A DNA stretch of 64,000 nucleotides from a virus (IMGVR_UViG_3300013104_000004:1-64000); one strand, 5' to 3'; positions 6,396 through 57,627 are shown, counted from the first letter of the stretch. Numbers and translations: made by a program. Notes: generated by a model not told the origin, from the letters alone.

Positions 6396-6551
6396 GGATC
6401 TGCCCTCCTACGTCCGTGGCCCAGCGGGGCCGTAGCTCTTGACGCCCCATGGCATCGACCGCCGAGGCCGCGACCGCGTGCTCTCGCTGTTCAGCACGTG
6501 CCCAGCGCGGCAGGCTGGCGCCCGCGCTCGGCGGCGCGCGAAGATCTCCCC

Positions 6552-7049
6552 ATGACCGTCGACGTGTGGGACCGGATTGCCCGTGTGGGCGAGACGCCCA
6601 CCCCTCAGCAGCCCAAGCGGCTCGCGCGCAGAGACCTGCGCGTCGGTGAGCGGCTGCCTGCGCACATCGTCGAGGTCACCGCCGAGCAGCTGCTCGTGCC
6701 GCGCGGCACCCGTCTGAGCGCCGTCCCGGAGTACCTGCGGTCGGTGCCGGGGACGTTCGAGGGTCGCATCCCGATGCGCTCAGGCGACTCGCCGTACTGG
6801 CTCGCGCTGTGCGCCGCCGCCCCGCGCCGGCTGTTCGAGCGCGGGTTCGCGCCGATCTGGCTCGCCACGCACCTCGCGGTACAGGAGCAGGTCGACATCG
6901 CCGAGGACTACACGCCGAAGCCCGGCCCTGAGACTGTGCCGAACATGCGCATCGAGCGGGCCGCCTCCCTCGACGCCATCGCGCCCTGGCTCGACGCCGC
7001 GCACGACGCACTCGCCGCCTCGCGCAAGGGGCTCAGAGGAAGGCTCTGA
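6552..7049 (+). CDS. Hypothetical protein, lone plus-strand gene within the tail operon
   Basis: C-terminal 165 aa (MTVDVWDRIAR...) of track ORF 4164..7049. Protein-like composition, fills the gap between minus-strand genes, and is preceded by the operator-like motif at 6491. Confidence 0.6.
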   Translation: MTVDVWDRIARVGETPTPQQPKRLARRDLRVGERLPAHIVEVTAEQLLVPRGTRLSAVPEYLRSVPGTFEGRIPMRSGDSPYWLALCAAAPRRLFERGFAPIWLATHLAVQEQVDIAEDYTPKPGPETVPNMRIERAASLDAIAPWLDAAHDALAASRKGLRGRL

Positions 7050-7839
7050 TCCCAGACCGGGAGCGCGGCACGCCGCTGAGCGGCAGCCCGAGCACCTCGG
7101 AGATCGCCTGCCGCATCGCCTGCAGCGCGCGGGTCTGGATCTTCGCGTCGTTCCACGCCCGCTTGAAGTACTGCTGCTCGCGGATCTCGTTGCGGATCAC
7201 GCCCTTGCGGGCCACCGAGCGCAGGTCGCCCATGAACCCGCCCTTGCCGGCGCGGGCCATCGCCATCGCCGAGCTGCGGGTCGCCTTCGAGTACGGCATG
7301 AACTTGCCGTTCCGCCGGCCAGCCTCGTGCCGCTCGAACGGGCCGTTCGGCACCGCGTACACGTTGCCCTTGCGGCTCCTGGCGTACTGCCCGGTGAAGC
7401 CCCAGCCCCACGCGCCCCACAGCACCTGGCCGACGTGGATCATCGTGCCCTGGTCGATCTGGCGCCAGTACTTCGCGTCGGAGCGGTCCAGGAACTTGGG
7501 GTCGCCGACGCCGAAGCGGTAGCGCTCGACGCGGCGGTTGCGAGGATCGGCCAGCGCGCGCGACAGGCGGCCTGTGCTGGCCTCGCGGCGCTCCTTGACG
7601 CGGGTCTCGTCGAAGGCGTCCACCAGCGCCTCCTGCAGCTCCTGGGCGAGCTTCGAGCTGGCGCGCTCCAGGATGGCGCCGACCTGCTCCCAGGCGTGGT
7701 TGTAGCCCGAGCGCTTCGCAGCGAACGCGAGGTAGTCCGGCAGGCCCACCGTGAGGACCAGCCCGTACCGGGTGCGGAACCGCAGTGTCGTGGCGGCGCC
7801 GCGGCCGCCGGCGCGGGCGCCTGACGTGTAGGTCGCCAC
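7033..7839 (-). CDS. Putative neck/tail-completion protein (HK97 gp10-like position)
   Basis: Basic 268 aa protein with STGRLSRAL and GTMIHVG segments, in the neck gene cluster. Confidence 0.5.
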   Translation of the reverse strand: MATYTSGARAGGRGAATTLRFRTRYGLVLTVGLPDYLAFAAKRSGYNHAWEQVGAILERASSKLAQELQEALVDAFDETRVKERREASTGRLSRALADPRNRRVERYRFGVGDPKFLDRSDAKYWRQIDQGTMIHVGQVLWGAWGWGFTGQYARSRKGNVYAVPNGPFERHEAGRRNGKFMPYSKATRSSAMAMARAGKGGFMGDLRSVARKGVIRNEIREQQYFKRAWNDAKIQTRALQAMRQAISEVLGLPLSGVPRSRSGIRAFL

Positions 7840-7842
7840 GGG

Positions 7843-8103
7843 CTAGTCGCTGGCGGTCTGCGCGTTGATCTGGTGCAGGAGGCGCAGAGCCTCCTCGTTC
7901 ACGACCCACCCCTTGTTGCAGGCGCGGATGCAGTCGAGCGTGAAGTCCGAGAACACCCCGACGCTCGTGAGCACCTTCTTGCGCACCTGGGCCTGCTGGA
8001 GCGGTGTGAGGTCCGGGTAGATCTCGCGCTCCATGAAGCCGAGGATCGAGCCGACCAGGCGGCGGCGCTGCTCGCCAACGAGCTCGGTGACGACGTCGCT
8101 CAC
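7843..8103 (-). CDS. Hypothetical virion-region protein
   Basis: 86 aa, overlaps the upstream gene by 4 nt. Confidence 0.6.
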   Translation of the reverse strand: MSDVVTELVGEQRRRLVGSILGFMEREIYPDLTPLQQAQVRKKVLTSVGVFSDFTLDCIRACNKGWVVNEEALRLLHQINAQTASD

Positions 8104-8603
8104 GTCTGGTCACCGCCGAAGTCCAGGACCAGGGTCGCCTTGACCGACTGCCAGGCGCCCAGGTCGGGGTTCGGCTGCTCGCGCACGACGTCGTCGAACT
8201 CGCCGAGGAAGCCCGGCAGCGCCTGGTCTGTCGCGGGGTTGGTGGGCCGCAGGAAGCGGGTGCCGCCGATCAGGCCGGCGAGCCGGTCCTTCAGGTCCGC
8301 CGCGATCGCCAGGGCGATGCCGTCGTTCTCCGCGAGGATGTCCACGAACAGCACGTGCTCAACGCGGAGCAGGCCGCCGCCGAGCTGCATGTCCTCGTAG
8401 TCTGCCTCGTCCCCGTGGGAGATGAACACCACGTTGCCGCTGACCGGCTTCAGCTCGGCCTGCTTCGGCGGCCGCAGCATCACCGTCACCGGCTGCGCAC
8501 CGAACGGCACGTTCGGGCCGCACCAGCCGAACTCGTCGAGGAAGGTCGACACGACCGCCTCCATGGACGCTCGCACATAGCGAGCCGCGTGGCGCACGTA
8601 CAT
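8100..8603 (-). CDS. Putative tail terminator
   Basis: ATG at 8603 (MYVRHAARY...) coupled to the upstream stop. Size and position are typical. Confidence 0.5.
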   Translation of the reverse strand: MYVRHAARYVRASMEAVVSTFLDEFGWCGPNVPFGAQPVTVMLRPPKQAELKPVSGNVVFISHGDEADYEDMQLGGGLLRVEHVLFVDILAENDGIALAIAADLKDRLAGLIGGTRFLRPTNPATDQALPGFLGEFDDVVREQPNPDLGAWQSVKATLVLDFGGDQT

Positions 8604-9064
8604 CAGACCTGGTCCTCCGTGCGGCACTCCAGCTGCCAGACCCCGACCACGTCGAGGTTCGGCTGCGCGAGCACCTTGTTGTAGAAGTAGGGCACCGGTT
8701 CCGCCTGCGCGGCCAGCCAGAGGTTCACGTAGGAGAAGCCCTTGACGAGCGCGTACTCCTCGTCGAGCAAGGTCACGACGATCGAGCCGGGCTGCAGCTG
8801 GCCGAACCGCCCGTCAGTGTTTGCCTCGGCCGCGGTCTCGATGACGCACAGCGGGCGCACCCTCGTGGTCTCGACCGTCGGCGCCACGACGTTCAGGTCC
8901 CAGGGCACCCCGGACGCATCTGCTGTTGCGGGGTCCGCAACAGCAGGAGCCTCGATGACGAACTCCGGCCGGCGCGCCTCCTCGACGGGCATGCCCAGCC
9001 CCATCGCCGTGCGGATGCCAGCGCGGAACGCGGCTGCCGGGAAGCCCGGGAGCGTGGCCGCCAT
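8603..9064 (-). CDS. Putative head-tail stopper/closure protein
   Basis: MAATLPGFPAAAFRAGIR..., coupled to both neighbours; synteny. Confidence 0.5.
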   Translation of the reverse strand: MAATLPGFPAAAFRAGIRTAMGLGMPVEEARRPEFVIEAPAVADPATADASGVPWDLNVVAPTVETTRVRPLCVIETAAEANTDGRFGQLQPGSIVVTLLDEEYALVKGFSYVNLWLAAQAEPVPYFYNKVLAQPNLDVVGVWQLECRTEDQV

Positions 9065-9576
9065 CAGAAGACGTCCCACTTCGGCAGCGCGAGCTCGTAG
9101 GCGAAGAAGCCGCCGTACAGGTTGTGCGCGGAACCGCGCGACACGTACCCCTCCAGGACGAACGTCGACGTGCCGCGGTTGCGCTGGGCGTTGGCCAGCA
9201 GCTCCGCGCGTCGCAGCCGCAGCTGCTTCAGATCCTCCGCGAGCACGGAGGCCGCCACCGACGTCTCCATCTCCACCGGCCCGGCCTTGTACCGGGCCTG
9301 GGACGCGAGGCCACGGATCTGCTGGCGCACCAGGCGCTCGCCGGCGTAGATGACCACCAGGGCGGCCCCGGCCACCGACAGGTCCGGCGTGGTCTCCTGG
9401 CCGTCGACGTCCAGCTCCAGCGAGCCGAAGAAGCCGTCCAGCTGGGCCGCGGCGAACGCGTCGCACAGGGCCCCACGGATCTCCGTGTCCGTCACCGTCG
9501 GGTAGGCGTCCGAGAATGCCCCAGGGACGGCCGCCTCGCGCTTGTACGCGCCGACCAGGTCGCTCATCGCCGTCAT
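9064..9576 (-). CDS. Putative head-tail adaptor
   Basis: MTAMSDLVGAYKREAAVPG...; helical ~170 aa protein downstream of the capsid cluster. The ATG is 9 nt after a late-promoter motif. Confidence 0.55.
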   Translation of the reverse strand: MTAMSDLVGAYKREAAVPGAFSDAYPTVTDTEIRGALCDAFAAAQLDGFFGSLELDVDGQETTPDLSVAGAALVVIYAGERLVRQQIRGLASQARYKAGPVEMETSVAASVLAEDLKQLRLRRAELLANAQRNRGTSTFVLEGYVSRGSAHNLYGGFFAYELALPKWDVF

Positions 9577-9770
9577 GCCCGTGTTCATCGACCCAGGGCG
9601 CACGAGAGCCCCGCGCGGACCGCGTCGCAGTCGGTCCGGGCGGGGCTCAGGTGGTGGAGCAGGTGGGCGCAGGGCGCGCTGATGGCAGGAGGTGGAGACA
9701 CCGGGTGTGACCTCCCCAGCGGCCTTCACGGGTTACTGAAACCGTCCGGCCCCGTGTTGACGCCGCCCGC

Positions 9771-10271: not shown

Positions 10272-10507
10272 GGCGGGCCTCCTGTTCCTCGGGTGCCCCC
10301 GGCTGGGGGCCAGCTCCATGCCCAAACCCATCGACGGTGCGGCCTGACCTAGTCGTCCGAGCCCGCCTTGTAAGGCGGACGGCGAGTGACAATCAGCAGC
10401 CAGCACGATTCACCCGTGGCGCATCGTCGATGACTCGCGGCCCCCGGGCCCCGCCGTCCGGCGGGAACTCCCGGGGGCCACTTCCCGGACCTCCGCGAAG
10501 GCCGGGC

Positions 10508-10760: not shown

Positions 10761-11729
10761 TCAGGAGACCTTGATGCGCCGCAGCGCCTCCGGGTGCCAG
10801 ATGCCACCACCGATGTCGCGACGCGACCGGAAGTGGGTGAAGTCGACCTTGTCCTCGGTCCAGGTCTTGACCTTGGAGCCGCCGTACGAGGCGAACAGGC
10901 CGGCGAAGCCACCGAACACGAAGATCTCGTCGTCGGGCACGAAGCTCGCGCCGTCCTCGTCGGTCCAGTTCGTCAGCTTGACGATGTTCGCGCCGCGGTA
11001 CGTGCCGAGACGGCCCGTCTTGCGGATCTCCTCCTGAGCCTCGGGGGCGTACCCGTCGAAGTCCAGGATCTGGTTGACCGCGGCCGCACGGCCCACGATC
11101 GTGAGCGGACGGGCCAGGACCACGTTGCTCGGGGGCGGGACGTCACCGATCTCGGCCAGGGCCAGGTTCAGGACGTCCTTGGTCAGGCCGCTGGACGAGT
11201 CCTCGTACGAGGCCCCACCGACCGGCGCCGACTCCTGGACCAGCTGGAAGATGCGGCGGTTGACCTCCGCCTCCTCGCGCTGCTTGCCCATCGGGATGAG
11301 GTCCGAGATCGTCTCGCCGTAGTTGGCGCGAACGTCGTCCTCGAACTCCGAGATGTGCCAACCCATGGTGTCGCGCGGGAGCTCCCACACGTCCGTGCGC
11401 ATGGTGCTCTCGTCGATCTCACCAGCGCGGTGGGTGTAGAACACCTTCAGCCCGCGGCGCTCCTTGATGGTGATCTTCTCGAACTCGCCGACGTTCCGAG
11501 TGGGGAAGTACCCACCGAAGACGTTCTCGTTCTTGAAGCCGTAGTCGAGCGCCTCGGCGACCAGGGCGGCCTGCTCACGGTGCCACGCACCGTTGCCCCA
11601 GTTCTCCTTGGCCTCCTCGTTCAGCGCGGCGAGGCCGGCCTTGTACTCCTGCTCCGCGGCAGCGGAGGCGAACTCCCGCTGCAGGCGAGGGCTGGAAGCG
11701 ACGAGATCCTTCAGAATGGACCGTGCCAT
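10761..11729 (-). CDS. Major capsid protein (HK97 fold likely)
   Basis: ATG at 11729 with GGAGG RBS, 322 aa, containing G+LG+YRGANIV-type and GGGIWHP C-terminal motifs. Follows scaffold and decoration genes. Confidence 0.8.
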   Translation of the reverse strand: MARSILKDLVASSPRLQREFASAAAEQEYKAGLAALNEEAKENWGNGAWHREQAALVAEALDYGFKNENVFGGYFPTRNVGEFEKITIKERRGLKVFYTHRAGEIDESTMRTDVWELPRDTMGWHISEFEDDVRANYGETISDLIPMGKQREEAEVNRRIFQLVQESAPVGGASYEDSSSGLTKDVLNLALAEIGDVPPPSNVVLARPLTIVGRAAAVNQILDFDGYAPEAQEEIRKTGRLGTYRGANIVKLTNWTDEDGASFVPDDEIFVFGGFAGLFASYGGSKVKTWTEDKVDFTHFRSRRDIGGGIWHPEALRRIKVS

Positions 11730-11743: not shown

Positions 11744-12262
11744 TCAGGCCTGGAGGACCGACTCGGCGAAGGCCGAGCCGTCCGTCTGGAGCACGCGGAG
11801 GACGGCCGCGCCCGTGGTCTTCTCGACCCACTTCGCGCCGTCCCACTGCAGGTCGTCGCCCATGGCGACGCCCGTCAGGTCCTGGACGGTGACGGCGGCG
11901 ATCTTGCGGCCGTCGAAGCGGGTCTCGGCGGGCGTGTTGCGGAACCACACCTTGATGCCCTGGCCCGACCAGATGGTCGCGAGGACGCCGTTGCGGGCCT
12001 TGCCCAGGTCGTGGCTGTCGACCTGCGGCGCCTCGAACGTCGAGGCGTCCCAGCCCTGGTGCTGGATCAGCAGCCCGGTGACGCCGGGGACGATCGCCGC
12101 GCCGGCCGGGGCCTTCTTGACGAAGCCCGGGTTGGCGTTGTCGATCGTGACCAGGTCGCCCTGGCGGTAGTCGCCCGTGCCGGGGACGCGGAACCGACCC
12201 TCACGGGTGGCCGAGTCACCGCCCGAGCGGCGGAAGCCGAAGTTGAGTCCGTAGTTCGACAT
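11744..12262 (-). CDS. Putative capsid decoration/cement protein
   Basis: 172 aa Gly-rich beta protein between scaffold and capsid genes. Confidence 0.55.
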   Translation of the reverse strand: MSNYGLNFGFRRSGGDSATREGRFRVPGTGDYRQGDLVTIDNANPGFVKKAPAGAAIVPGVTGLLIQHQGWDASTFEAPQVDSHDLGKARNGVLATIWSGQGIKVWFRNTPAETRFDGRKIAAVTVQDLTGVAMGDDLQWDGAKWVEKTTGAAVLRVLQTDGSAFAESVLQA

Positions 12263-12265: not shown

Positions 12266-12847
12266 TCAGTTCCCACCCTTCGTGTGAGTGCTCCAGAAGG
12301 ACGAGCTGCCCTTCTTGTCGCCACCCGCGGACGCGCCGGCAGCAGCGGTCTCCCGCTTGCCGGCCTTCTCCTGGGTGGACTCCTTGGCGCCGACGAGGCC
12401 GGCAGAGACCTGCGCGAGCTCGGCGACGTAGCCGTCGAACGCGGCCTGCTCCATCGCGGCCCACGTCTGCGCGCGGTCCTCGGTGAACCAGTCGTCGGCC
12501 ATGTGGGCCGCGGCCTCGCGGACCTTCGCGACGCGCTCGTCCGTGCGCGCGGCGATCTCGGCCTTGGCCTCCAGGTCCGCCTTGTAGTTGGCGAACTCCG
12601 TCTCGACCGCGGCCTTGGCCACCTCGGAGGCGTCGAGCTTCGTCTGCAGCTCGGCCTTCTCGGTGGTCAGGGTCTCGACCTGCGCCTCCAGCGCCGCCTT
12701 CTCGGTGGCGATCTCCGCGGTCTCCCGCGTGATGCGGTCGGCGAGGATGGCGGTGTGCTCCTCCTCGGAGAACGTCCGCGCCTCCGCGGTCTCCCGCGGC
12801 AGCTCGGCCGCGATCTCCCGGGGAAGGTGATCCATGGGGTTCGGCAT
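12266..12847 (-). CDS. Capsid scaffolding protein
   Basis: ATG at 12847 with GGAGG RBS; Ala/Glu coiled-coil; upstream of the capsid gene. Confidence 0.7.
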   Translation of the reverse strand: MPNPMDHLPREIAAELPRETAEARTFSEEEHTAILADRITRETAEIATEKAALEAQVETLTTEKAELQTKLDASEVAKAAVETEFANYKADLEAKAEIAARTDERVAKVREAAAHMADDWFTEDRAQTWAAMEQAAFDGYVAELAQVSAGLVGAKESTQEKAGKRETAAAGASAGGDKKGSSSFWSTHTKGGN

Positions 12848-12932
12848 GAGCCCGTACCTCCTTCGTTGCTCTCTCAGGTGGCCGGTACTCGGCCGTTCGC
12901 TGAGATGCATCGACGGGAGGTACGGGCCCCGT

Positions 12933-16952: not shown

Positions 16953-17392
16953 CAGACCTGCCCCCCGACCATCTGCAGGTCCTGGCGCGAGACCTCGATC
17001 AGGCGACTCGCGGTCTTCCACTGGCGGTCCAGCTCGGTGATGTACCGCTCCGCCTGCTGGGTGCGGATGCGCACGTACTGGCGGTCGAGGTTCTCGACGC
17101 GGTGCAGGAGCACGCACATCTCGGTGAGGCGCGCGGAGTACGCGCTGCACTCGCGCAGGACCTCGTCGGGCGCCTTCAGGTAGAAGCCGCGCATCGCGGA
17201 GGCGATGTCGTCGATCTCGTCCTGGATCTGCTCGCGGGTGCCGAGCCCAGCGCGGAGGTTCGCCATGTCGTCGCGCACGACGTAGTCCGCCATGGGCGGG
17301 ACGGCCGGCCCCTTCGCCGCGGCCGGCACGTCGGTGCGGACTGGGAAGGCTGGCCGCAGGGGCTGCTCGTCGACGACGCTCGCGGTTGGCAT
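16952..17392 (-). CDS. Hypothetical helical protein
   Basis: 146 aa, coupled to the portal. Its ATG is 8 nt after a late-promoter variant (TTCGATG). Confidence 0.65.
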   Translation of the reverse strand: MPTASVVDEQPLRPAFPVRTDVPAAAKGPAVPPMADYVVRDDMANLRAGLGTREQIQDEIDDIASAMRGFYLKAPDEVLRECSAYSARLTEMCVLLHRVENLDRQYVRIRTQQAERYITELDRQWKTASRLIEVSRQDLQMVGGQV

Positions 17393-17450
17393 GCCTGGTA
17401 CATCGAACTCCGAGGAGCTCGGCGGAACGCCAACGAGCGCGCGGGAGCTC

Positions 17451-19103: not shown

Positions 19104-19149
19104 GTCATGCCTCCAGGTGTTGCGAACTCCGCAACACGGAAGATCGACG

Positions 19150-25318: not shown

Positions 25319-26722
25319 TCAGGGTGCGAGGCGAACCCAGATCGGCGAGTACGCGACCTCGAAGTACGGCACCTGGCGCACGGCGTTCGCCGCCGCGACG
25401 AAGCGCATCTGGCGGTGCTCCTCGGTGGTGTTGACGTCCGCAGGGAACGGGTACATCGAGACCGCCAGGCCGATCTCCGAGCCGAGGTCGCCCCGGGCTA
25501 CGGCATGCGGGGGGTATGCGCCGGCCAGCGAGACCGGGAAGTGCCCATAGGTGTTCCCCACAGTCGCAGCGCGCATCGAACTCTCGGGCACAGCGACCAC
25601 CCCGGCCGGCTTCGTGGCCCAGGTGACCGTCGCCGGGTCCCAGCCGGCGGGGTCCAGGCCGTAGATCCGCAGGCTCGTGCTGCCGTCGCTGTACTGGTCC
25701 TCGTTTCGGTACAAGCGCAGCGTCAGGGCGGACGGGTACAGCTGGCTCACCGCAGGGATCGCAGCGCGCAGCAGCAGGATGCTCATCGCGAGATAGCCGG
25801 CCTCCCCCTTCGCCGTCGGCGGCACCCGCACGAACCACGTCGGATCCGCCGAAGTGTTCGACGCGGGCGCGTCGGGATCAATGACCGAGCCGGCCGCCAA
25901 CACCTTCGACGCGACACCGCCCGCGGAGGCCGTCGTCGGATTTGGAATGGGCCCCGGCGCCCACGACGCCGCAGCTGGCGCGTCGACCGTCGCGGCGTAC
26001 AGGACGCCCTGGTACGAGACGAGCGACCCCTTGGAATAGGGGGCGCCAGGCGCCCACGGCCCCTCGAAGTGCAGCCCGGACTCTCCAGGGGGCCCCTGGG
26101 GACCGGCCGCTCCGCGCGGCCCATCTGCGCCATCGGCCCCCCGCGGGCCCGCCGCCAGCGCCCCCATGCTCACCCAGCCGGAGGTCGACATCACCCACAT
26201 CTCGGCGCCGACGACATACGCGTCGTTGGTCGGCGCTCCTGCCGGCAGGTCGGCCTGCGAGCTCAGCTGGCCGCGGAACGCGAACGAGGTCCCGTTCACG
26301 CCATCCGCGCCGGCCGGGCCTCGGGGGCCATCCGCGCCGGCCGGGCCTTCTGGACCCTCAGGGCCCGGGTCGCCCTGCGGCCCCTGAGGGCCGTCCGCGC
26401 CCTGCAGCGGCGGGAGCGCGAGCCAGCCGCTGTCCAGGGTCCACACCATCGCGCCCGTGTCGCGCAGGTACGCGTCCCCAGGCGTGGCGTCCGTAGGTAG
26501 CGCCGCCGGCGAGTCAATGCGCCCGCGCAGCGTCACGCCACCGACGCCAGCCGGCCCCGGCTCGCCCCGTGCGCCCTCCGGCCCGCGAGGCCCTTCGGGG
26601 CCGACGCCGTACCGCGCCTCGTACTCACCCTCGCTGCCGGGGGTCCACAAGGCGTTCTGGTAGATGACGGGACCCGACGCTTCGGCGGGCAGCTCGGCAA
26701 CTACAGGCAGGTGTCTCGGCAT
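25319..26722 (-). CDS. Collagen-like tail fibre / minor tail protein with putative C-terminal carbohydrate-binding domain
   Basis: Several G-X-Y tracts. C-terminal LTLRLY...WDPATVTWATKP resembles DNRLRE/CBM96-type domains. Confidence 0.75.
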   Translation of the reverse strand: MPRHLPVVAELPAEASGPVIYQNALWTPGSEGEYEARYGVGPEGPRGPEGARGEPGPAGVGGVTLRGRIDSPAALPTDATPGDAYLRDTGAMVWTLDSGWLALPPLQGADGPQGPQGDPGPEGPEGPAGADGPRGPAGADGVNGTSFAFRGQLSSQADLPAGAPTNDAYVVGAEMWVMSTSGWVSMGALAAGPRGADGADGPRGAAGPQGPPGESGLHFEGPWAPGAPYSKGSLVSYQGVLYAATVDAPAAASWAPGPIPNPTTASAGGVASKVLAAGSVIDPDAPASNTSADPTWFVRVPPTAKGEAGYLAMSILLLRAAIPAVSQLYPSALTLRLYRNEDQYSDGSTSLRIYGLDPAGWDPATVTWATKPAGVVAVPESSMRAATVGNTYGHFPVSLAGAYPPHAVARGDLGSEIGLAVSMYPFPADVNTTEEHRQMRFVAAANAVRQVPYFEVAYSPIWVRLAP

Positions 26723-26745
26723 GCCCAGAGCATCGACTGGGCGTG

Positions 26746-29031: not shown

Positions 29032-29435
29032 GCCGCGTCCCGCGTGATGTTCGGGGAGAGGGTGATGTCGCCCTCGATGACGCGGGTCACGTCACCCGAC
29101 GGCCATACCAGCTCCAAGTCGTACTTCGCGGAGCGGCGCGGCTTCAGGGGATCGTCCGTCACGCCGAGCGCATCGGTCTGCTCCGCCGAGGCGATGATCT
29201 GGATCCGGCCATCGGCGCCACCGACGACGAGCCCGCCGTTCTCCGTGGTGAGCTCCAAGAGCACGTCCGTGCCGTACTTCGCGCGGAGCTGCATCCTGGC
29301 CGTGCAGCCGGTGATGTCGCGGGGGAGGGGCGGCAGGGGAGCCGCCTCCGTGGATTCCGGGTTCGAGCGCGCCCAGACGAACGCGCACCGGTACGTCTGG
29401 CCCTGGAGCCACAGCATGCTGACCGTCTTCGCCAT
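29028..29435 (-). CDS. Fibre-attachment/baseplate-upper-like protein
   Basis: QGQT...DITGCTARMQLR...KYDLEL...VIEG.ITLSP pattern typical of phage fibre adaptors. Confidence 0.65.
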   Translation of the reverse strand: MAKTVSMLWLQGQTYRCAFVWARSNPESTEAAPLPPLPRDITGCTARMQLRAKYGTDVLLELTTENGGLVVGGADGRIQIIASAEQTDALGVTDDPLKPRRSAKYDLELVWPSGDVTRVIEGDITLSPNITRDAA

Positions 29436-29520
29436 GCCCAGACAGATCGACCCCGGCCCTCAGGAGAGAGAGCCGGGGTCGCTGTTGCGGACTCCGCAAC
29501 AGCGGAGTCCCATGATCGCG

Positions 29521-30869: not shown

Positions 30870-30922
30870 CGTTCCTCCTGGGGTGAGTACCTGTTCCTCA
30901 CCCCGAGGAATCGACCGAGCGG

Positions 30923-31252: not shown

Positions 31253-31356
31253 CGAGTCCCCCAGGGTCGGTCGGTCACCTCCTGGCATCGACCCCAGAGA
31301 CGACGCAGGCCCCGGCCGAAGCCGGGGCCCAAGTCGAGATGCGATCACCTCCCAGG

Positions 31357-31934: not shown

Positions 31935-31983
31935 GAGCTCCTCCTCCAGGTGGGATGTGACGTACGCCTGGGGAAATCGACCT

Positions 31984-32730
31984 TCAGCCCGCCTGGAACG
32001 CCACGCGCAGCATGTTCAGCGCCTCGGCGCGCGTCTTGCGGATGCGCGACGGCGCCACGCCGAACTCGCGTGCTACCTCGCCCAGGCCGCGGTTGTGGAA
32101 GTACAGCTGGGCCATCACGGCCTGGTGCTCGTCAGGCAGGTCCACGATGCGCGAGGCGACCCGCTCGGCTACCGCGTAGGCGTCGGCCGCCTCGTCCGTG
32201 CGGTCCCCACCGTCGAGGGCCTCCAGGCCGTGGTCCTGCTCGTCACCCGCCTGCCCGGTCGAGCCGATGGGGATCTGCTGGCGCAGGTGCACGAGCTCGT
32301 CGACGTCGACACCGAGCTTCGCGGCCACCTCGGAGCGCGTGGGGGCCCGGCCAAGGTCCTGGGCGAGCTCATCCTCGACAGCGTGCTGCTCCTTCAGCCG
32401 GCGCCACGTCAGGCGGCTGGCCCAGGAGGTGGCCGGGGACTTCAGGCCGTCGAGGATGGCGCCACGGATGCGCATGCTGGCGTACGACATGAAGTGCTTG
32501 TGCAGGGCGCCGTCGGACTGCTCGATATCGAACCGGCCGACAGCCTCCAGCAGGCCCTGCGCGGCCCACGAAATGAGGTCGTCGCGCTCAACATGGTCAG
32601 GCACCCGCTTGTCGTACGCGATCTTCTTCGCAAGCCAGAAGTAGCCCGCTACGAGTTCGTCGCGCGCGCGCAGATCACCGTCGTTGCTGCGGCGCCACAG
32701 GGCGTCGAGGTTCTCCAGGTCCAGGGTCAC
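31984..32730 (-). CDS. RNA polymerase sigma factor, FliA/WhiG (sigma-28) family
   Basis: ARDELV...VERDDLIS...GLLEAVGRFD...F.SYASMRIRGAILDGLK (region 2), LGRAPTRSEVAAKLG (region 3), LPDEHQAVMAQLYF...LGEVAREFGVAPSRI (region 4). Confidence 0.9.
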   Translation of the reverse strand: MTLDLENLDALWRRSNDGDLRARDELVAGYFWLAKKIAYDKRVPDHVERDDLISWAAQGLLEAVGRFDIEQSDGALHKHFMSYASMRIRGAILDGLKSPATSWASRLTWRRLKEQHAVEDELAQDLGRAPTRSEVAAKLGVDVDELVHLRQQIPIGSTGQAGDEQDHGLEALDGGDRTDEAADAYAVAERVASRIVDLPDEHQAVMAQLYFHNRGLGEVAREFGVAPSRIRKTRAEALNMLRVAFQAG

Positions 32731-32990
32731 AGCTGGTCGTCCTCCCAGACGTCGTTGGTGCCGAACCAGGCCTCGTGCTCGGGGCGCCACAGCTCCGCGA
32801 CCTTGCGGCCGGGCAGCCGGCACACCCGGAAGGTGAACTCGGTGACCTCCAGGTCGAGCACGAAGATCAGCCACGGCGTCAGCCGGGTCACCGCGGGGGA
32901 GAGCTCGCGGGTATACAGCGAGAGCTCTAGGCGCGTGTGCGCGCCGAGCTGCTTGGGCAGGTGCGGAGCAAATCGGTCAATCCAAGCCAC
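32727..32990 (-). CDS. Hypothetical protein coupled to the sigma gene
   Basis: GGAGG RBS, GTG at 32990, 4-nt overlap with the sigma start. Confidence 0.6.
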   Translation of the reverse strand: MAWIDRFAPHLPKQLGAHTRLELSLYTRELSPAVTRLTPWLIFVLDLEVTEFTFRVCRLPGRKVAELWRPEHEAWFGTNDVWEDDQL

Positions 32991-35407: not shown

Positions 35408-35524
35408 GATGCCCCCGGGCATCGACACATCCCGTCGTCACTGCTGAGCACCTGCGCACAGCGGATTATCGAAAAACGCCGAGAGTTCCATCGCGGAAGC
35501 GGACCTGCCGTGGTGCCTGGCGCG

Positions 35525-46861: not shown

Positions 46862-47121
46862 GCATGACGACCGACGCGTACGCCTGCCGGTACGTGGTCG
46901 ACGGCACCGACACCGACGGCACGGTGTGGAACCGATGCCTCGTCCATGACGAGCTGGCGCCCTCGAACGAGGCGCCATGCTCCGACGCCGGCGCCGACGA
47001 TGCGGTGCGCAGGTGCCCTGAGTGCGACGCCGACATGCACCTCGTGCCCTACAACTTCAACGGCTTCGAGCACACCGACTGGGGCCTCGCCTGCACCGAC
47101 TGCGACTACCACGACCTCTAG
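46858..47121 (+). CDS. Small Cys-rich protein
   Basis: CPEC...CTDC; lies between ku and the ligase. Confidence 0.6.
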   Translation: MSMTTDAYACRYVVDGTDTDGTVWNRCLVHDELAPSNEAPCSDAGADDAVRRCPECDADMHLVPYNFNGFEHTDWGLACTDCDYHDL

Positions 47122-47191
47122 GAGGACCCGATCTACCGTCTGATCCCGCGCGAGATCCGTGCGGACCTGCACGCCTACGAACAGGAGAGAC

Positions 47192-48101: not shown

Positions 48102-48860
48102 ATGGCGACGTACGGCGTCGAGATCGGCCACGACGTCCGGCGCTGGACCACCTACAGCGTTACCGACCCGACCGACGAGGAGCTGGCCACGCTGCGCGAG
48201 GGCGCCGACGAGGCGGTGGACCTCCTGCAGAGGATGGAGGCCGCCGGTCGGGCTGAGGGCGCCGGCTGGACGGACGAGGAGAACCCTGACCCGTTCGACT
48301 GGGACCTGGACCCCGCCGTCGTGAGCGTCGAGGGCTGATGCCGCGCCCCCCGAAGCAGTACGGCGTGCTGCTGTCCTGCGCGCCGATGGACCGCGACGAC
48401 ATCGACCGGCAGGTCGACGGACCGTTCGCCACCCGCGCCGAGGCGACCAGCTACGGCATCTCGGCCACGCGCTCCGGCATCGAGTACGAGGTCATGTCCC
48501 GCGTCCGCAACAACGACCCCTGGCGCTCCCTGCGCCACGAAAGCATCGCCGACGTCATCCGCCGGCGCTGGCAGTAACCCTTCACAGAGAGGCATCCCCA
48601 TGGCGACTGACGCCAACGAGGTCGAGATCGAGACGACCAAGCTCTACGGCACCGGCATGAACCCCGAGGTGGAGAAGTTCCCCGTCGTCATCGACGCGAT
48701 CGACGGGTCCAGTTCACGGACCTTCCACCTCACCGTCTCCGCAGCCGAAGAGCTGCGCAACGCCATCGACGACGCGCTCCACCAGGTGGAGTACCGCACC
48801 TTCGACGAGCCCGACCCCGACGTCGCGCACGACCGAGCACGAGAGGACGCCTGCTGGTGA
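48102..48860 (+). other. Three small hypothetical genes (48102-48338, 48338-48577, 48600-48860)
   Basis: Consecutive ORFs with RBS-like sequences and phage codon usage. Confidence 0.6.
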
Positions 48861-48951: not shown

Positions 48952-50106
48952 ATGAGCACCCTGCACACCGACTTCGCCGCCGTCCAGGCGGAGCTGAACG
49001 CCGAGTTCCCCGAGCGTCGCGACGCGGTCGAGGTCCTGACCCTCGCGCTCCTGACGGGGCAGCACTCGTTCCTGCTGGGCCCTCCCGGCACCGGCAAGTC
49101 CAAGCTCGCCCGCCGCTTCGTCGAGCACTTCCCGGGCGCGCGCTACTTCGAGACGCTGCTCTCGAAGAACCGCCCCGACGCCGCGGTGCTCGGCCCGTAC
49201 GACATGGCCAAGCTGCGCGAGGAGAGCGCGTTCGTCCGCAAGGACGAGGGCTACCTCACGTCGGTGGACGTCTCGTTCATCGACGAGATCGGCAAGATGT
49301 CCCCGACGTCGGGCCACGACATCCTGGCCGCGCTGAACGAGCGCATCAAGCACGAGGTCAGCAACGGTCGCTCCGCGCACCGGATCCCGCTGCACTCGGT
49401 CATCACGGCGAGCAACGAGCTGCCGGCGGCCGAGTCCGAGGACGCCGCCGCGATGTGGGACCGGCTGCTGTTCCGCACCACGGTCGACTACATCGTCGGC
49501 AACACCGACTTCCAGACGATGCTGTCGGCCGTCGACGGCCCCATCGGCACGACGATCCCCTGGCCGCAGGTGCTGTACGTGGCCGAGGAGGTCCGGGACG
49601 TGAAGCTCACGACCGAGACGCTCGACGCCGTGGTCGCGCTGCGCGACACCTTCCGGCAGGAGGGCCTGTCCGTCAGCGACCGCCGCTGGCGGGACTCGAT
49701 GGCCGCGGTCCGCGCCACCGCGTGGCTGCGCGGGTCGGACTCCACCGAGCCCGACGACCTCTACGCCCTGCGCTTCACGCACTGGGACAACGTCGAGACC
49801 ATCGGCAAGGTCGCCCGCATCATCCTCGGGCTGATCTCCCCGGAGAACGAGGAGATCGCGACGCTGGCTGACGACGCCGCGGCGCTGGAGGCCGAGCTGG
49901 AGTCTCGCAAGGGCGAGGCGCGCGAGAAGATCAGGGCGTTCCTGGTCGAGGCCGGCGGGAAGAAGACGCAGGCGCAGGAGCACATCGTGGCGCTGCGCAC
50001 GAAGGTCACCGCGCCCCGCCAGCTGGCCGAGCTCGACCGGCTCAACGAGCGCCTCGACGCCTTCCTGGCGCGCGGCAAGAGGCTCGCGGGCCTGGACAAG
50101 CTCTGA
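48952..50106 (+). CDS. MoxR-family AAA+ ATPase (RavA-like)
   Basis: GPPGTGKS, FIDEIGK, LNER, ASNELP, WDRLLFR, SDRRW. Confidence 0.9.
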   Translation: MSTLHTDFAAVQAELNAEFPERRDAVEVLTLALLTGQHSFLLGPPGTGKSKLARRFVEHFPGARYFETLLSKNRPDAAVLGPYDMAKLREESAFVRKDEGYLTSVDVSFIDEIGKMSPTSGHDILAALNERIKHEVSNGRSAHRIPLHSVITASNELPAAESEDAAAMWDRLLFRTTVDYIVGNTDFQTMLSAVDGPIGTTIPWPQVLYVAEEVRDVKLTTETLDAVVALRDTFRQEGLSVSDRRWRDSMAAVRATAWLRGSDSTEPDDLYALRFTHWDNVETIGKVARIILGLISPENEEIATLADDAAALEAELESRKGEAREKIRAFLVEAGGKKTQAQEHIVALRTKVTAPRQLAELDRLNERLDAFLARGKRLAGLDKL

Positions 50107-50345
50107 TGGCCGGGCGTTCGTTCATCCCCTTCGAGGCCATGACCGACGCACAGCAGGTCGAGCACCTTGTCGTGGCGCACGCCCTCGACGCGGAGTATTT
50201 CGACGACGGCCGCGACCCGCGCGCGTACTTCGCCGGGCTCACGGCCAGGGAGCGCGTCGCGTACTGGCACGACGCCGACCACGTCGAGGACCCCGAGGTG
50301 CTCGGCGACAGGCTCCGTCACGACCACGACAAGGAGGTGCGTTGA
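50106..50345 (+). CDS. Small acidic protein between the AAA and VWA genes
   Basis: 79 aa, coupled on both sides. Confidence 0.6.
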   Translation: MAGRSFIPFEAMTDAQQVEHLVVAHALDAEYFDDGRDPRAYFAGLTARERVAYWHDADHVEDPEVLGDRLRHDHDKEVR

Positions 50346-51808
50346 TGTTCGGCTGGAGCGATGAGGAGGAGCACGACGACGCCGTCCCGCACGACCGCTT
50401 CGACCAGATGTCGTGGAACGGCATGCGCATGGAGTCCATCTCGATCGACGAGATGGTCAACGAGCTGTCCGTGAAGTACGACCACGTCGAGGACTTCGCG
50501 CAGGACGTCTACTCGCTCCTGGCCAAGGGCGACCCGCGCGTGCGGGAGCCCGAGGAGATGAGCCTGTCGCACGTCCCGCTGCGCCAGGTCACCGACGAAC
50601 TGCAGGACCTCACTGAGCTGAAGCGGCTCCGCACCTGGACCGTCGGCGACCCGTTCAACGCGGCCCTCGCCCTCGGATCCATGAAGGAGGCGCTGCAGGG
50701 CTCGCTCGAACGGGCAGCCCAGCTGAAGGGGCAGGCCGAGGCAGCGCAGGCCGCCAGAGACGCCGCACGACAGGCCGCGCAGGAGGCGGCTGACAACCCC
50801 GGAGATCCCGGGGCCGGCGAGGCCGCAGAGCAGGCGTCGGCAGCCGCCCAGGCCGCCGCTGACCACCTGCAGGCAGGTGCCGAGCAGCAGGCAGCCGAGG
50901 GCGCCCAGGCCATGCGCAAGGCCGTGAAGGACGCGCGCGAGGAGGTCGAGGAGGTCAACGAGTCGGCCGCCTCGTACGGCCTGGAGCCGGGGGAGTTCCA
51001 GCGCATGCCGGCCAAGGAGCGGTTCGCTCTGGCGCGCCGGCTGCAGTCCGAGAAGCTGCGGAAGTTCGCAGCGCTCATCGGGCAGTTCCGCCAGCTGGCG
51101 GCCGCCGAGTGGCGCCGCCGGTACAACGACGGCTCCGACGAACAGGTCGGTATCAAGCTCGGTGACGACCTCACCAGGCTCACCGGCCAGGAGCTCATCA
51201 ACATGGCCACACCCGAGCTGGAGGACGACTTCTGGCGCCGGTTCGTGGACAAGGAGCTGTGGGTCAAGGAGCTGCGGGGACGCGAGCGGGTCGGCAAGGG
51301 CCCGATCATCGTGGTCGCTGACGAGTCCGGCTCGATGGCCGACGAGGGCGAGCTCTGGGCCAAGGGCCTGGCGCTCGCGCTGCTCGACCAGGCGGGCCGC
51401 GGCAAGCGGGACTTCCACTACATCGGGTTCGCATCGGGCCCGCTGCGGGAGTTCTCGTTCCCCGGCGGGAAGGCCGACGTCGACAAGGTCATCGAGATGG
51501 CCGAGGGCTTCCTCAACGGCGGCACGGACTTCGCGCGGCCGTTGCGGCGGGCGCTCGACCTGGCCATCGCCGCCGGCAAGGAACGCCCCGACATCGTCTT
51601 CATCACCGACGGCGTCGCGGGCTCGCTCCCGTTCCTCGAAGAGTGGCGCCAGGTGCGCCACGAGCTCTCCATCCGCTGCTACGGGATCTTCGTCGCGACC
51701 GGCGGGTACGGCCTCCCTAGCGAGGTGCTCGAAGAGATCGCCGACGACGTCCGCACCATCGCGGACGTCACCAACACGTCGCAGGTCGCGGACATCCTCC
51801 GCGGCTGA
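50345..51808 (+). CDS. VWA (MIDAS) domain protein, ViaA-like
   Basis: GPIIVVADESGSM, GGTDF, DIVFITDG. Confidence 0.9.
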   Translation: MFGWSDEEEHDDAVPHDRFDQMSWNGMRMESISIDEMVNELSVKYDHVEDFAQDVYSLLAKGDPRVREPEEMSLSHVPLRQVTDELQDLTELKRLRTWTVGDPFNAALALGSMKEALQGSLERAAQLKGQAEAAQAARDAARQAAQEAADNPGDPGAGEAAEQASAAAQAAADHLQAGAEQQAAEGAQAMRKAVKDAREEVEEVNESAASYGLEPGEFQRMPAKERFALARRLQSEKLRKFAALIGQFRQLAAAEWRRRYNDGSDEQVGIKLGDDLTRLTGQELINMATPELEDDFWRRFVDKELWVKELRGRERVGKGPIIVVADESGSMADEGELWAKGLALALLDQAGRGKRDFHYIGFASGPLREFSFPGGKADVDKVIEMAEGFLNGGTDFARPLRRALDLAIAAGKERPDIVFITDGVAGSLPFLEEWRQVRHELSIRCYGIFVATGGYGLPSEVLEEIADDVRTIADVTNTSQVADILRG

Positions 51809-51818
51809 CACCACGCCC

Positions 51819-51855
51819 ACGAAGGGGGCTGCCCATACCGGGTGGCCCCCTTCGT
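51819..51855 (+). terminator. Hairpin (terminator or processing site)
   Basis: ACGAAGGGGGCTGCCC/GGGTGGCCCCCTTCGT. Confidence 0.6.
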
Positions 51856-51876
51856 CATACCCCCGAAAGGAACCTC

Positions 51877-52854
51877 GTGACCACGCTCTCCGACTACGTC
51901 GACGGCGCAGGCGACCTGCCCCTGCTCGGCACGATCTGCATCAACACGACCTACGACGGCAGCTACGAGGTCGAGCTCGTCCAGGAGGTCTTCCAGGCCG
52001 AGGGGCTCGACACGAGCTTCATCCCGTCGCCGTCCGGCGCGAAGGACGCGTTCTCGAAGGCGATCACCAACCACAAGGAGACCAGCTACGTCCTGAGCAA
52101 CGGGCACAAGGTCTCGATCATGCTCCGCGAGATGGACTCGTCGAACCCCACCGAGTACGCGGTGCGCGCGCTGGTGCGCGAGGAGCGCTCGACCAACGGC
52201 GAGTCGCTCTTCTACGACAACATCGGGGAGATCAAGCACTACCACGGCGTGCGCCGCGGAGCCGGCCGCCAGGTCGACGACACCGCCGCCCGCCTCTACT
52301 GGGGGCTGGCCGCGAACAGCGACACCCTGGCCCTGTCCGACGAGGAGCGCGCGAAGATCCGCAACGTCGCCATCCGCGTCCACAACGACTACCAGCGCTA
52401 CCGCAGTTCGCTCGACGGCAAGAAGGTCCGGGCCATGGTCACGAGCTACCTGCGCCACCTCGACGCCATCAAGCTGAAGGACTCGGTCTACTTCGTCCCC
52501 GTCGCACACAGCGAGTCCGTCCGCGCGCTGCGCGTCGCCGTCTCCCACTTCGGCGAGTGCACGCTCGACGGCATCCCGCTCGTCGACTTCCAGGACCAGC
52601 GAGACCTCATCATCCGCACGTTCCAGGCCGATACCGACGACGCCATGAGCACGCTCGCTGGCCAGCTGCAGCAGGCGCGCGCCAACCCGTCCGCCGCCAC
52701 ATACGAGAGACTGCGCAAGCAGTACGACGAGCTCACCACCCGCACCCGCACCTACACCAGCACGCTCGGCGATTCCGTCGCCAAGACGACTGGCTCTCAC
52801 GAGATCGTGAAGGCCGCGCTCGTCGCCCTCCAGACGGAACTGCTGGGCGGATGA
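51877..52854 (+). CDS. Hypothetical protein (possibly DUF6744-like), AAA/VWA-associated
   Basis: 325 aa with P...DAF and VYFVP motifs and a C-terminal helical bundle; the family name is from memory only. Confidence 0.6.
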   Translation: MTTLSDYVDGAGDLPLLGTICINTTYDGSYEVELVQEVFQAEGLDTSFIPSPSGAKDAFSKAITNHKETSYVLSNGHKVSIMLREMDSSNPTEYAVRALVREERSTNGESLFYDNIGEIKHYHGVRRGAGRQVDDTAARLYWGLAANSDTLALSDEERAKIRNVAIRVHNDYQRYRSSLDGKKVRAMVTSYLRHLDAIKLKDSVYFVPVAHSESVRALRVAVSHFGECTLDGIPLVDFQDQRDLIIRTFQADTDDAMSTLAGQLQQARANPSAATYERLRKQYDELTTRTRTYTSTLGDSVAKTTGSHEIVKAALVALQTELLGG

Positions 52855-54579: not shown

Positions 54580-54593
54580 GAGGAGGCCACACC

Positions 54594-56458: not shown

Positions 56459-56564
56459 TCGCCCAGTGGTGGCGCCGTCGCCGTCTCCTGCGACGGCTAC
56501 GAGCGCTCGGGATCGAGCCCCAGGACTGGCAGCTCGAATACCTCGACCACGCGCTCCGCAAGCG

Positions 56565-56894
56565 CTAGAGGGAGCCCTTCATCAGGCCCCGAATATCGAC
56601 GCCCTGGCGCCGCAGCCACGCGAGTGCTGTGGTGCCAGGGCGCTCCACAATCGCCTGCAGCGCGGGCGTGAAAGTGGCCGCGTGCGCGTGCACCATCTGG
56701 TGACAGATGTGCCCGTAGCCGCCGCCCAGTGTGACCAGGTTCGCCGGCCCATGGTTGTTCCGGTCCTGGCTCCTGAACACGATGTGGTGCAGTGCCGCCG
56801 GGTCCGCCCAGCGGCCGCACACGCGGCACAGGCCGCGGTCTCGCTCATGCACGGCGCGGCGAGACTTCTCCGGGATGTCCGTCGACTTGGGCAT
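56565..56894 (-). CDS. HNH endonuclease
   Basis: RDRGLCRVCG...HHI...NL...CHQMVH. Confidence 0.85.
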   Translation of the reverse strand: MPKSTDIPEKSRRAVHERDRGLCRVCGRWADPAALHHIVFRSQDRNNHGPANLVTLGGGYGHICHQMVHAHAATFTPALQAIVERPGTTALAWLRRQGVDIRGLMKGSL

Positions 56895-56994
56895 CAGGGC
56901 ACGAGCTCGCCGGGCATGTCCGCATCGTCGATCACGACGCCCGTCTCGGGGTGCACCCAGCGGGCCCGCGGCGCGTCGTACCAGAAGTCAGCCA

Positions 56995-57261
56995 TCAGAC
57001 GGCCTCGTACGTCTCCGCGAAGATGTCCGGCTTGCAGGGGTAGAACTCACCCTGGACGCCCCGGATGATCCAGTCGCCGGGCGACGCCGTCATTACGCCC
57101 TCCAGCGTCGCGATCTGGAGGTTACGGATGTCCTGGGTCGAGACGGTCGGCGCGCGGTAGTCCTCGCCATCGACCCAGTGCATGATCGCACCCGCCGACG
57201 TCGATGAGCCCGTGAACTGGTGTGCCTCGATCTCGACGGGCACCTTGCGGAACATCGGCAT
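56995..57261 (-). CDS. Conserved phage protein (RKVPVEIEA...GDWII...FYPCKPDIF family)
   Basis: Recognisable widespread phage motif set. Confidence 0.75.
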   Translation of the reverse strand: MPMFRKVPVEIEAHQFTGSSTSAGAIMHWVDGEDYRAPTVSTQDIRNLQIATLEGVMTASPGDWIIRGVQGEFYPCKPDIFAETYEAV

Positions 57262-57426
57262 GTCTCAGTCCTCTCGTCCGCGGCGCACAGCCGCCTTCGC
57301 CTGGTGCCGCGCGCGCCGCCGCGCCGGCCTCTTCCACCCGTTGCACTCCCAGTGCTGGCAGCCGTCATCGCACGGACTCGCCGTACGACCGCCCGAGGAT
57401 CCACCGGCGCCGCTCAGTGCGCGCCA

Positions 57427-57531
57427 TCAGTCGTCCTCCTCGACCAGCCAGAAGGCCGCGCGCGTGATGCCCACGGCCAGCAGCGAGTAGGTCACCAGGC
57501 CGACTGCGGCCACCGTTAGCGCGCGCTTCAT
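57427..57531 (-). CDS. Small membrane peptide, probably leaderless
   Basis: MKRALTVAAVGLV...; ATG 9 nt after GTCGATG. Confidence 0.5.
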   Translation of the reverse strand: MKRALTVAAVGLVTYSLLAVGITRAAFWLVEEDD

Positions 57532-57627
57532 GCCCCCGACCATCGACCCCTGTCGCGAGGGGTCGCACGATGACACTGCAGGCACGTGCCGACAGGCGAC
57601 GAGGCGGGGCCCGTCCGCCGCGATCCC

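Follow-up and report, generated by a model that had tools for sequence, protein, structure and literature searches.

Which promoter element governs the virion and lysis genes of an uncultured soil phage, and which protein reads it, is the question raised by the viral sequence IMGVR_UViG_3300013104_000004:1-64000. This window (the whole 64,000-nucleotide (nt) stretch that was analysed) comprises the first 64 kb of a virus record of 83,483 base pairs (bp). On its minus strand, a short box, GTCGAT, recurs in front of late genes, and the same strand carries, at 31984..32730, the gene of a 248-amino-acid (aa) sigma factor with Pfam regions 2, 3 and 4. The original prediction held that this protein, a repurposed flagellar or sporulation sigma of the FliA/WhiG (sigma-28) type, drives the late genes from promoters reduced to a -10 element, often giving rise to leaderless mRNAs. 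Every sequence test that we ran supported a sigma-28-derived phage sigma acting at -10-only late promoters. In our judgement the GTCGA(T/G) boxes are probably one-element late promoters, read by the phage's own sigma-28-type sigma on the host core polymerase. That the box is a promoter, that this sigma reads it and where exactly the transcripts start are points that we infer from the DNA.

The 13 predicted minus-strand cores were all present, 12 of them as GTCGAT and one as TTCGAT (17401-17407). The base that follows was G, C or T at 13/13 sites and never A, and the six quoted strings of box, spacer and ATG matched the sequence exactly. In the window, GTCGAT occurred 60 times on both strands compared with 42.0 ± 6.5 times in shuffled sequences, none of 100 shuffles reaching 60. 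Across the whole record, 16 of the 78 copies fell into the 8.8% of the DNA called as non-coding; 15 of these 16 were on the minus strand and one was on the plus strand. In gene-oriented upstream DNA (44 stretches, 4,563 nt), no 6-mer was more enriched than GTCGAT, which occurred 12 times where 1.23 occurrences were expected (Poisson P = 8e-9); TCGATG ranked second. The box is asymmetric and is found as one copy per site. The warning that the word is common in this DNA proved justified, as 62 copies lie inside genes, and so did the expectation that fixed spacing and the GGC element would tell the two classes apart. A GG followed by a pyrimidine-purine step accompanied 10/12 upstream copies versus 6/62 copies inside genes (P = 6e-7), the pyrimidine-purine step 8-9 nt past the seventh base was found in 12/12 versus 32/62, and an ATG directly after the extended motif in 5/12 versus 0/62. 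These counts omit the TTCGAT site, which fits as well. Enrichment of the extended motif upstream of genes had been set beforehand as a test, and it was found. The full motif is (G)GTCGAT-B-N5-6-GG-Y-R, where B is G, C or T and Y-R is the pyrimidine-purine step.

According to gene calls and family scans, virion, packaging and lysis genes occupy the minus strand from 21.8 kb down to position 1 and on round to about 74 kb, and again at 36.7-25.3 kb. Replication genes are also on the minus strand (73.9-59.3 kb), and forty mostly small genes are on the plus strand (38.1-56.5 kb). The box, TTCGAT included, was present in 13 of the 20 gaps of at least 20 nt that precede minus-strand genes of the virion and lysis blocks (3.9-36.7 kb). 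The claim that nearly every late unit is preceded by a box was therefore too strong, and most is the appropriate word. In one of these 13 gaps the copy (33617) lies 626 nt from the gene. A further copy, at 57.5 kb, heads a four-gene unit ending in an HNH endonuclease. No box was found in the five gaps of the replication block, nor, in gene orientation, in the 16 gaps before plus-strand genes. The genes located behind boxes include the terminase, a 146-aa gene with the probable portal, the capsid operon, head-tail genes, a major-tail-like protein with immunoglobulin (Ig) domains, two fibre units, the endolysin unit, small genes just past the sigma gene and the HNH unit. A hairpin with a z-score of -2 or better against shuffles was detected within the 70 nt upstream of 4/13 sites, and terminator-like sites between 21.7 and 38.3 kb numbered 4 versus 3.7 expected. 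Thirteen promoters, several of them just after terminator-like hairpins, would split the virion, packaging and lysis genes into short units.

The box is kept in related phages. Twelve relatives of the sigma, at 43-60% identity, were present in the protein collection, and their alignment was used to find loci in viral contigs; a search of these contigs with the single sigma sequence returned nothing, and the alignment-based search succeeded. The whole records of four relatives were compared with the phage of the window (G000): G001, of 86.6 kb and a provirus by classification; G003, of 92.8 kb; and G002 and G004, which are fragments of 43 and 41.7 kb, respectively. They are syntenic with G000 over the structural modules, G001 over the early modules too, at protein identities of 30-60%. 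Their intergenic DNA has diverged freely, and the box is kept at the same junctions. In a blind count over the four relatives, GTCGA(T/G) was found no more than 110 nt before 14/21 orthologues of box-led genes versus 40/327 other genes (P = 5e-8). The major-tail-like gene has a box ahead of it in 5/5 genomes, 54-72 nt from the start, and the 12266 gene in 4/5 (G000, G001, G002 and G003, not G004). The 9064 gene is box-led in G000, G001 and G002. It is predicted to be leaderless in the first two, the G001 orthologue reading GTCGAGT-gatggggcc-ATG with a matching N-terminus, and has a 27-nt leader behind the box in G002. The 16952 gene is preceded by TTCGAT in both G000 and G001 (TTCGATT-gacgagtac-GTG in the latter), predicted to be leaderless in each and with the N-terminus MPTA in each; the 29028 gene is likewise box-led and apparently leaderless in both (G001: GTCGATG-gatgagggc-ATG). 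The same predicted leaderless layout is shared by G000 and G001 at three junctions. In G001, the terminase gene is preceded by GTCGAGG-gctctcgggc-ATG and the HNH orthologue is itself preceded by GTCGATA-ggcaggtc-ATG. GTCGAT is also enriched upstream of genes in G002 (8 seen versus 1.3 expected), and a short metagenome contig of the sigma clade found in a metagenome scan (L124) carries GTCGATC-gtctcgggc-ATG.

The geometry of the sites was compared with that of sigma-28 promoters. These combine a TAAA-type -35 element, a spacer of 15-16 nt and the -10 element GCCGATAA; in Actinomycetota, the WhiG consensus is a -35 of xT(C/A)Ax, a 16-nt spacer and a -10 of GCCGA, of which CGA is required and the first two bases vary (PMC13595943). 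For the Pseudomonas aeruginosa fliC promoter, PMC12784957 gives (-15)GCCGATAA(-8) as the -10 element; its CGA places at -11 an A that is flipped out and held by the specificity loop of the sigma. At our sites, the CGA core was present in 13/13 cases, and the first two bases were GT (12) or TT (1), within a one-mismatch tolerance. The TAA or A-rich tail of the sigma-28 -10 element was missing from all 13 boxes. A pyrimidine-purine step was located 11-12 nt past the A of GTCGA at 13/13 sites, the distance to the predicted start purine being 11 nt at 2 sites and 12 nt at 11 sites. Because the A lies at this distance from the purine, a sigma-28 holoenzyme would be expected to start there. The absence of a conserved -35 element, as originally reported, was borne out. 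A WhiG-type T(C/A)A at a spacer of 15-17 nt was found at 1/39 sites of four genomes, compared with 0-6 at control offsets, and a motif search for a -35 returned scattered positions with scores barely above shuffles and nothing positional. The proposed shift in the specificity of the sigma is a modest one. GTCGA itself is inside the known range of the family, since WhiG promoters are reported to vary the first two bases and to keep CGA (PMC13595943); the real differences are that both a -35 and an A-rich tail are lacking and that the start is preceded by a G-rich stretch.

The sigma factor itself was found to be nearest to FliA and WhiG. The best NCBIfam model was TIGR02479 FliA_WhiG (107.9 bits), followed by the FliA and WhiG equivalogs, SigB/F/G (67.0 bits) and the RpoD C-terminal model (42.5 bits); on these profile scores, sigma-28 is a nearer relative of the protein than are the group-1 sigmas or the other members of group 3. 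A profile of the phage clade searched against PDB matched WhiG of Streptomyces venezuelae (6pfv, 119.9 bits, E = 1e-33) and FliA (6pmi, 110.6 bits), as well as 1rp3 and 9wsm, with SigF (1l0o) lower at 71.8 bits. A Foldseek search of the sigma model against PDB gave only generic sigma-70-family matches that did not tell subfamilies apart, and with low TM-scores (template-modelling scores), because the sigma domains sit differently. Region 1 is absent, the FliA/WhiG model matching from residue 27 of the 248 onwards, and region 2.4 has its motif RIRGAxLD(E/G)L, RIRGAxLD being invariant in the phage clade and common to cellular FliA. Between the FD and F-x-YA motifs, within what PMC12784957 terms the specificity loop, the clade has 5 inserted residues (FD-x3-SDGxLHKHF), and a further insertion, of 2 aa, precedes the W-x-P-R motif. 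Region 4.2 is its least conserved part, with a mean pairwise identity of 0.32 versus 0.66 in region 2; among 17 cellular FliA-like proteins the corresponding values are 0.46 versus 0.50. Two of 13 clade members do not have 13 residues of the region 4.2 helix-turn-helix. In G000, region 4 is predicted as a confident three-helix domain (predicted local distance difference test score, pLDDT, 93-96). Among GenBank phages, tblastn with the sigma gave matches at 24-31% identity only.

The sigma gene is preceded on the minus strand by an 87-aa gene (32727..32990) that overlaps its start by 4 nt, and a 75-94-aa protein is kept upstream of the sigma in G001, G002 and L124. Loci of its relatives are L028:6219-6446, L038:12981-13265 and L124 at about 1450-1620; they share the motif RLPG..ELW..W. 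No Pfam, NCBIfam or PHROG match was obtained for the 87-aa protein, which may be a partner or regulator of the sigma. Upstream of this operon lies a 1,165-nt stretch (32991-34155) with no confident open reading frame (ORF) and no Rfam match; early expression of the operon would come from this 1.17-kb region. An isolated minus-strand GTCGAT (33617) with a pyrimidine-purine step at 8 nt is located within it and could point to autoregulation of the sigma, or to an unannotated small gene or RNA.

In the mechanism that we propose, host RNA polymerase with a host sigma would first transcribe the operon 32990-31984, encoding the 87-aa protein and the sigma. The phage sigma, as a diverged member of the sigma-28 (FliA/WhiG) lineage, would then join the host core and read the single element (G)GTCGAT-B, in which the CGA core would act as it does in GCCGATAA, its A being the base flipped out at about -11/-12. 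Transcription would start at the purine after GG-pyrimidine, 11-12 nt past the A of GTCGA, and a -35 element would not be used. At five sites, possibly six, the start purine would be the A of an ATG, yielding an mRNA with no leader, and the remaining sites would give leaders of 34-62 nt with a GGAGG-type ribosome site.

Translation of leaderless mRNAs is common in Actinomycetota. Of the six ATG codons that had been proposed as leaderless starts, five look truly leaderless, and the sixth probably is not. The five are as follows, all on the minus strand. At 9576..9592, GTCGATG and aacacgggc precede the ATG of a 170-aa gene of the virion block (9064-9578). At 17392..17407, the variant TTCGATG with taccaggc precedes that of a 146-aa gene (16952-17392), which is followed by a 577-aa gene, probably the portal. 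GTCGATG with ctctgggc (26722..26737) abuts the predicted leaderless start of a 467-aa tail-fibre gene with collagen and carbohydrate-binding-module (CBM) matches (25319-26722). GTCGATC with tgtctgggc (29435..29451) abuts that of a 135-aa gene (29028-29435) leading into tail-fibre genes, with two strong hairpins upstream of the box (z = -4.9). The fifth, GTCGATG with gtcgggggc (57531..57547), abuts the predicted leaderless start of a small ORF at the head of the four-gene unit that ends in the HNH endonuclease (56565-56894). The gene caller picked the box-abutting ATG, with no ribosome-site score, at 17392, 26722 and 29435; at 9576 and 57531 it picked an in-frame ATG inside the box, 12 nt upstream. 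Orthologue N-termini agree with leaderless starts at 9576, 17392 and 29435. At the sixth site (10319..10335, GTCGATG with ggtttgggc), the ATG is in frame, yet the G001 and G002 orthologues are Shine-Dalgarno-led, and a GTG (10271) preceded by AGGAGG lies 48 nt further on. For these reasons we read this site as a promoter with a leader; the ATG is probably just the transcript start, and translation is likelier to begin at the GTG.

The remaining minus-strand sites are mostly set back from the start codon. With the box at 6443..6459 (GTCGATG, ccatggggc, then G), the predicted transcript start is separated by 48 nt from the TTG start codon (6395) of a gene for a 494-aa protein with Ig/TIG domains (Pfam TIG), which is probably the major tail protein. 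Just upstream of this major-tail-like gene, within the late block, an oppositely oriented gene is found (6552-7049, plus), and G001 likewise has one at this location (51479-52099, minus). The box at 12898..12914 (GTCGATG, catctcagc, then G, with no GG) is ahead of 12266-12847, 11744-12262 and the major capsid protein gene (10761-11729, PHROG major head protein), and that at 19132..19148 (GTCGATC, ttccgtgtt, then G) is ahead of the large terminase gene (17451-19103, PHROG terminase). At 30899..30915, GTCGATT with cctcggggt and G precedes a 40-aa ORF, a CHAP/peptidoglycan-binding endolysin (29902-30747) and a 125-aa gene. At 31276..31292, GTCGATG with ccaggaggt and G precedes a 109-aa gene (30923-31252), with a terminator-like hairpin just upstream (z = -2.7). 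At 31965..31981, 3 nt past the stop codon of the sigma gene, GTCGATT with tccccaggc and G stands ahead of a 66-aa and a 126-aa gene. Finally, at 35410..35426, GTCGATG with cccgggggc runs into ATC-GTG, where a 255-aa gene begins (34655-35422 or 35407); its predicted leader is 0-3 nt long.

Palindromes were noted near some of these sites. At the terminase promoter, the palindrome GTTGCGGAGTTCGCAAC begins where the transcript is predicted to start. An 8+8 palindrome without mismatches, GTTGCGGAGT(T/C)CGCAAC, is present at two intergenic positions of the late region, 19119-19135 (the terminase promoter start) and 29484-29500, about 35 nt upstream of the box at 29435..29451, with a near copy inside a gene at 8925-8941; it may serve as an operator, as a terminator or as a hairpin that stabilises the 5' end. 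A further palindrome, GCACGTGC, occurs 19 times in the record, a mild enrichment, and five copies are intergenic (6494, 21227, 33068, 33861 and 57582). Of these five, two belong to the long stretch that precedes the sigma operon, and two others are positioned some 35 nt ahead of the boxes at 6443..6459 and 57531..57547.

A number of observations weigh against our reading of the boxes. Seven of the 20 late-block gaps have no box; no called start is found within 600 nt of the non-coding minus-strand copies at 33617, 37616 and 37693, and the copy at 10426, also non-coding, is on the plus strand. Gene starts and counts rest on our own crude codon-bias gene calls. The relaxed pattern is not enriched genome-wide (30 matches versus 20.7 ± 4.1), only the intergenic copies standing out, and six in-gene GTCGAT copies bear the full extension and would have to be silent or irrelevant. 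Among the relatives, G003 and G004 showed no enrichment of the GTCGAT 6-mer, and the GG-Y part was significant in G000 only, not in G001 or G002. The sixth base is not fixed either, G001 having mostly GTCGAG(T), and for this reason GTCGA is taken as the firm core. The assignment of the sigma to the FliA/WhiG type is qualified by its scores, which are below the curated family cut-off of 189.6 bits for TIGR02479, and by the 91.9 bits that it obtains with the WhiG equivalog NF004935 against a cut-off of 343. Moreover, the folded region 4 of the model may make a degenerate or indirect upstream contact.

A stronger form of the one-element reading, unlikely in our estimate, is that the sigma of this clade is a true one-element reader. 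The 5-residue loop insertion and the G-rich stretch would then replace the binding energy of the -35 element, region 4 would serve only to hold the beta-flap, and the RLPG..ELW..W protein, whose translation would be coupled to that of the sigma, would act as a co-factor that masks or remodels region 4, comparable with gp79 acting on gp36 and with AsiA, which masks or remodels region 4 of sigma-70.

Quite unlikely, in our view, is the alternative that the box is no -10 element at all. It would instead be bound by a phage protein, be it an activator, a repressor or a loader of an antiterminator, or would act through the RNA, for example as a processing site at which long late transcripts are trimmed to leaderless mRNAs. 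DNA-binding proteins are indeed encoded at the head of the structural block, namely a helix-turn-helix protein (19150-19626) and a zinc-finger protein (21235-21786), and a fixed distance to the ATG would suit a cleavage site too. The spacing between box and start codon is nevertheless variable (9 to 62 nt), while that of the pyrimidine-purine step is 8-9 nt throughout. An asymmetric box with a single copy per site is unlike typical operator repeats, and its resemblance to the sigma-28 -10 core, in a phage that has a sigma-28-like gene, also speaks against this alternative. Nor is there a housekeeping -10 nearby for an activator to help, TANNNT being present within -30 to +26 at 0/13 sites. A sigma-70-type consensus scan of 21.7-38.3 kb gave no promoter-like site, a result that is uninformative in such G+C-rich DNA.

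About equally unlikely is that the boxes are promoters read by a putative WhiG/FliA-type or other alternative sigma of the host, the phage sigma serving otherwise, for example in reprogramming host genes. GTCGA does fall within the range allowed for the WhiG -10 element, in which CGA is fixed and the first two bases vary, but the -35 that the published WhiG regulon search demanded (PMC13595943) is found at only 1/39 sites. The A-rich tail of GCCGATAA is absent as well, with a seventh base that is never A, and in four related phages the box occurs together with a sigma of the phage clade.

Chance or base composition, with a pattern picked by eye from a word common in 70% G+C DNA, is a very improbable explanation, for although 62 copies lie inside genes and the relaxed pattern lacks genome-wide enrichment, the word is the top upstream 6-mer, its non-coding copies are 15 to 1 on one strand, its extension splits upstream from coding copies and orthologous junctions conserve it. 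A restriction or packaging site was dropped, as the box is asymmetric, strand-specific and ahead of genes, and so was a promoter of the extracytoplasmic-function (ECF) type, there being no GGAAC-like -35 and no ECF sigma gene.

As to the phage itself, both ends of the record repeat 123 bp exactly, and the record is therefore regarded as an assembled circle. An ORF of roughly 2,100 aa, probably the tape measure, spans the junction (window 1-3712 plus record 80788-83483); in G001-G003 it corresponds to one gene each, 5.1-5.9 kb long. The G+C content is 70%. Family scans identified genes for WhiB, Ku and an ATP-dependent ligase, ArdA, a tyrosine integrase, a primase-helicase and a Sak4-like protein. 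These features mark the phage as temperate, with a high-G+C Gram-positive host. In a scan of genome contigs with the sigma, only cellular FliA/WhiG genes at 28-37% identity were found and no prophage of the clade. Among sequencing runs, the phage was located in a single one, a DNA run that may stem from its source sample, and in no RNA run. No GenBank phage gave a megablast match with 20 kb of the record, and Rfam and tRNA scans of the window yielded no match. The early plus-strand block includes the Ku and ATP-dependent DNA ligase pair (46037-48091), a MoxR AAA ATPase with a VWA protein (48952-51808) and ArdA (40458-41054). The divergent region 36714-37101, between the gene 35577-36713 and the plus-strand genes, holds two direct repeats that contain CTCATCTCTAAGCAA when read on the minus strand (37063 and 37004), with TAAGCAA occurring a third time at 36783; these elements probably serve to control an early or lysogeny switch. 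Beyond it, minus-strand GTCGAT copies at 37616-37621 and 37693-37698 are 900-980 nt from the next minus-strand gene, the copy at 37616 having no GG-Y-R extension. Many intergenic regions of G001 contain an inverted-repeat word of the form TTCCTGC-N-GCAGGAA (for example at record positions 38400-38470, 48170-48200 and 72790-72820; TTCCTG 11 seen, 1.55 expected); this word, which the window lacks, probably acts as the operator for a regulator of the phage.

That sigmas encoded by phages can turn the host polymerase to late genes is textbook knowledge, and the worked examples known to us come from Escherichia, Salmonella and Bacillus phages. The late promoters read by T4 gp55 and SPO1 gp33/34 consist of a -10-like element only, recognised by a phage sigma-like protein, and these proteins are far more diverged or truncated sigmas that need co-factors (in T4, the sliding clamp and gp33). 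The present system resembles them in its -10-like-only late promoters and phage-encoded reader and differs in the need for co-factors, none being known here. The closest functional parallel is gp36 of phiEco32, for which the passages concerned in PMC8948821 describe a tAATGTAtA element before middle and late genes with a start 6-8 bp downstream, ascribe the lack of a -35 to the lack of region 4 homology, and make no mention of leaderless mRNAs. Shared with that system, as those passages present it, are a phage sigma working on the host core, one-piece promoters and positions kept in related phages (PMC8948821). With starts as predicted, our sites likewise have one element 6-9 bp upstream and no -35, and are kept in place among relatives. 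The two systems differ in that gp36, as described there, has no region 4, whereas region 4 is here predicted to be confidently folded, and lineage, motif and host phylum differ as well. The likeness is one of the mode of working, not of common descent.

The likeness to sigma-28 (FliA/SigD/WhiG) lies in a sigma with regions 2, 3 and 4 and RIRGAxLD, and in an xxCGA promoter with a predicted start 11-12 nt past the A (PMC12784957, PMC13595943). The system differs in being phage-encoded and serving virion and lysis genes, in having no -35, a fixed T at the second base (13/13), no A-rich tail and a G-rich stretch before the start, and in a sigma that bears a 5-aa specificity-loop insertion and a 2-aa insertion before WxPR and scores below the family cut-off. 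The full-text literature searches that we made listed no paper about phage sigmas of the FliA/WhiG type or the promoters that they read, and a term search in the survey 'Phage-encoded sigma factors alter bacterial dormancy' (PMC9429907, main text) brought up no mention of WhiG, flagella or Actinobacteria. The strategy of a phage sigma with one-piece late promoters is known; what is new is the sigma lineage, the motif, the missing -35 despite a region 4 predicted to be folded and the systematic leaderless starts that are predicted.

The finding amounts to a case, supported by comparison, of a probable late sigma in a lineage of uncultured high-G+C phages that carry WhiB; this sigma is drawn from the flagellar/sporulation (sigma-28) branch. 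It offers a simple annotation rule for the late operons and true start codons of such phages and a natural experiment on how much of a group-3 sigma promoter is dispensable. The sigma and its promoter, of about 17 bp, may also be a compact orthogonal pair for trial in Streptomyces or Mycobacterium. If the stronger form of the reading were true, a one-element sigma-28 reader would represent a new minimal route of promoter recognition in group-3 sigmas, tied to wholesale leaderless expression of the virion genes.

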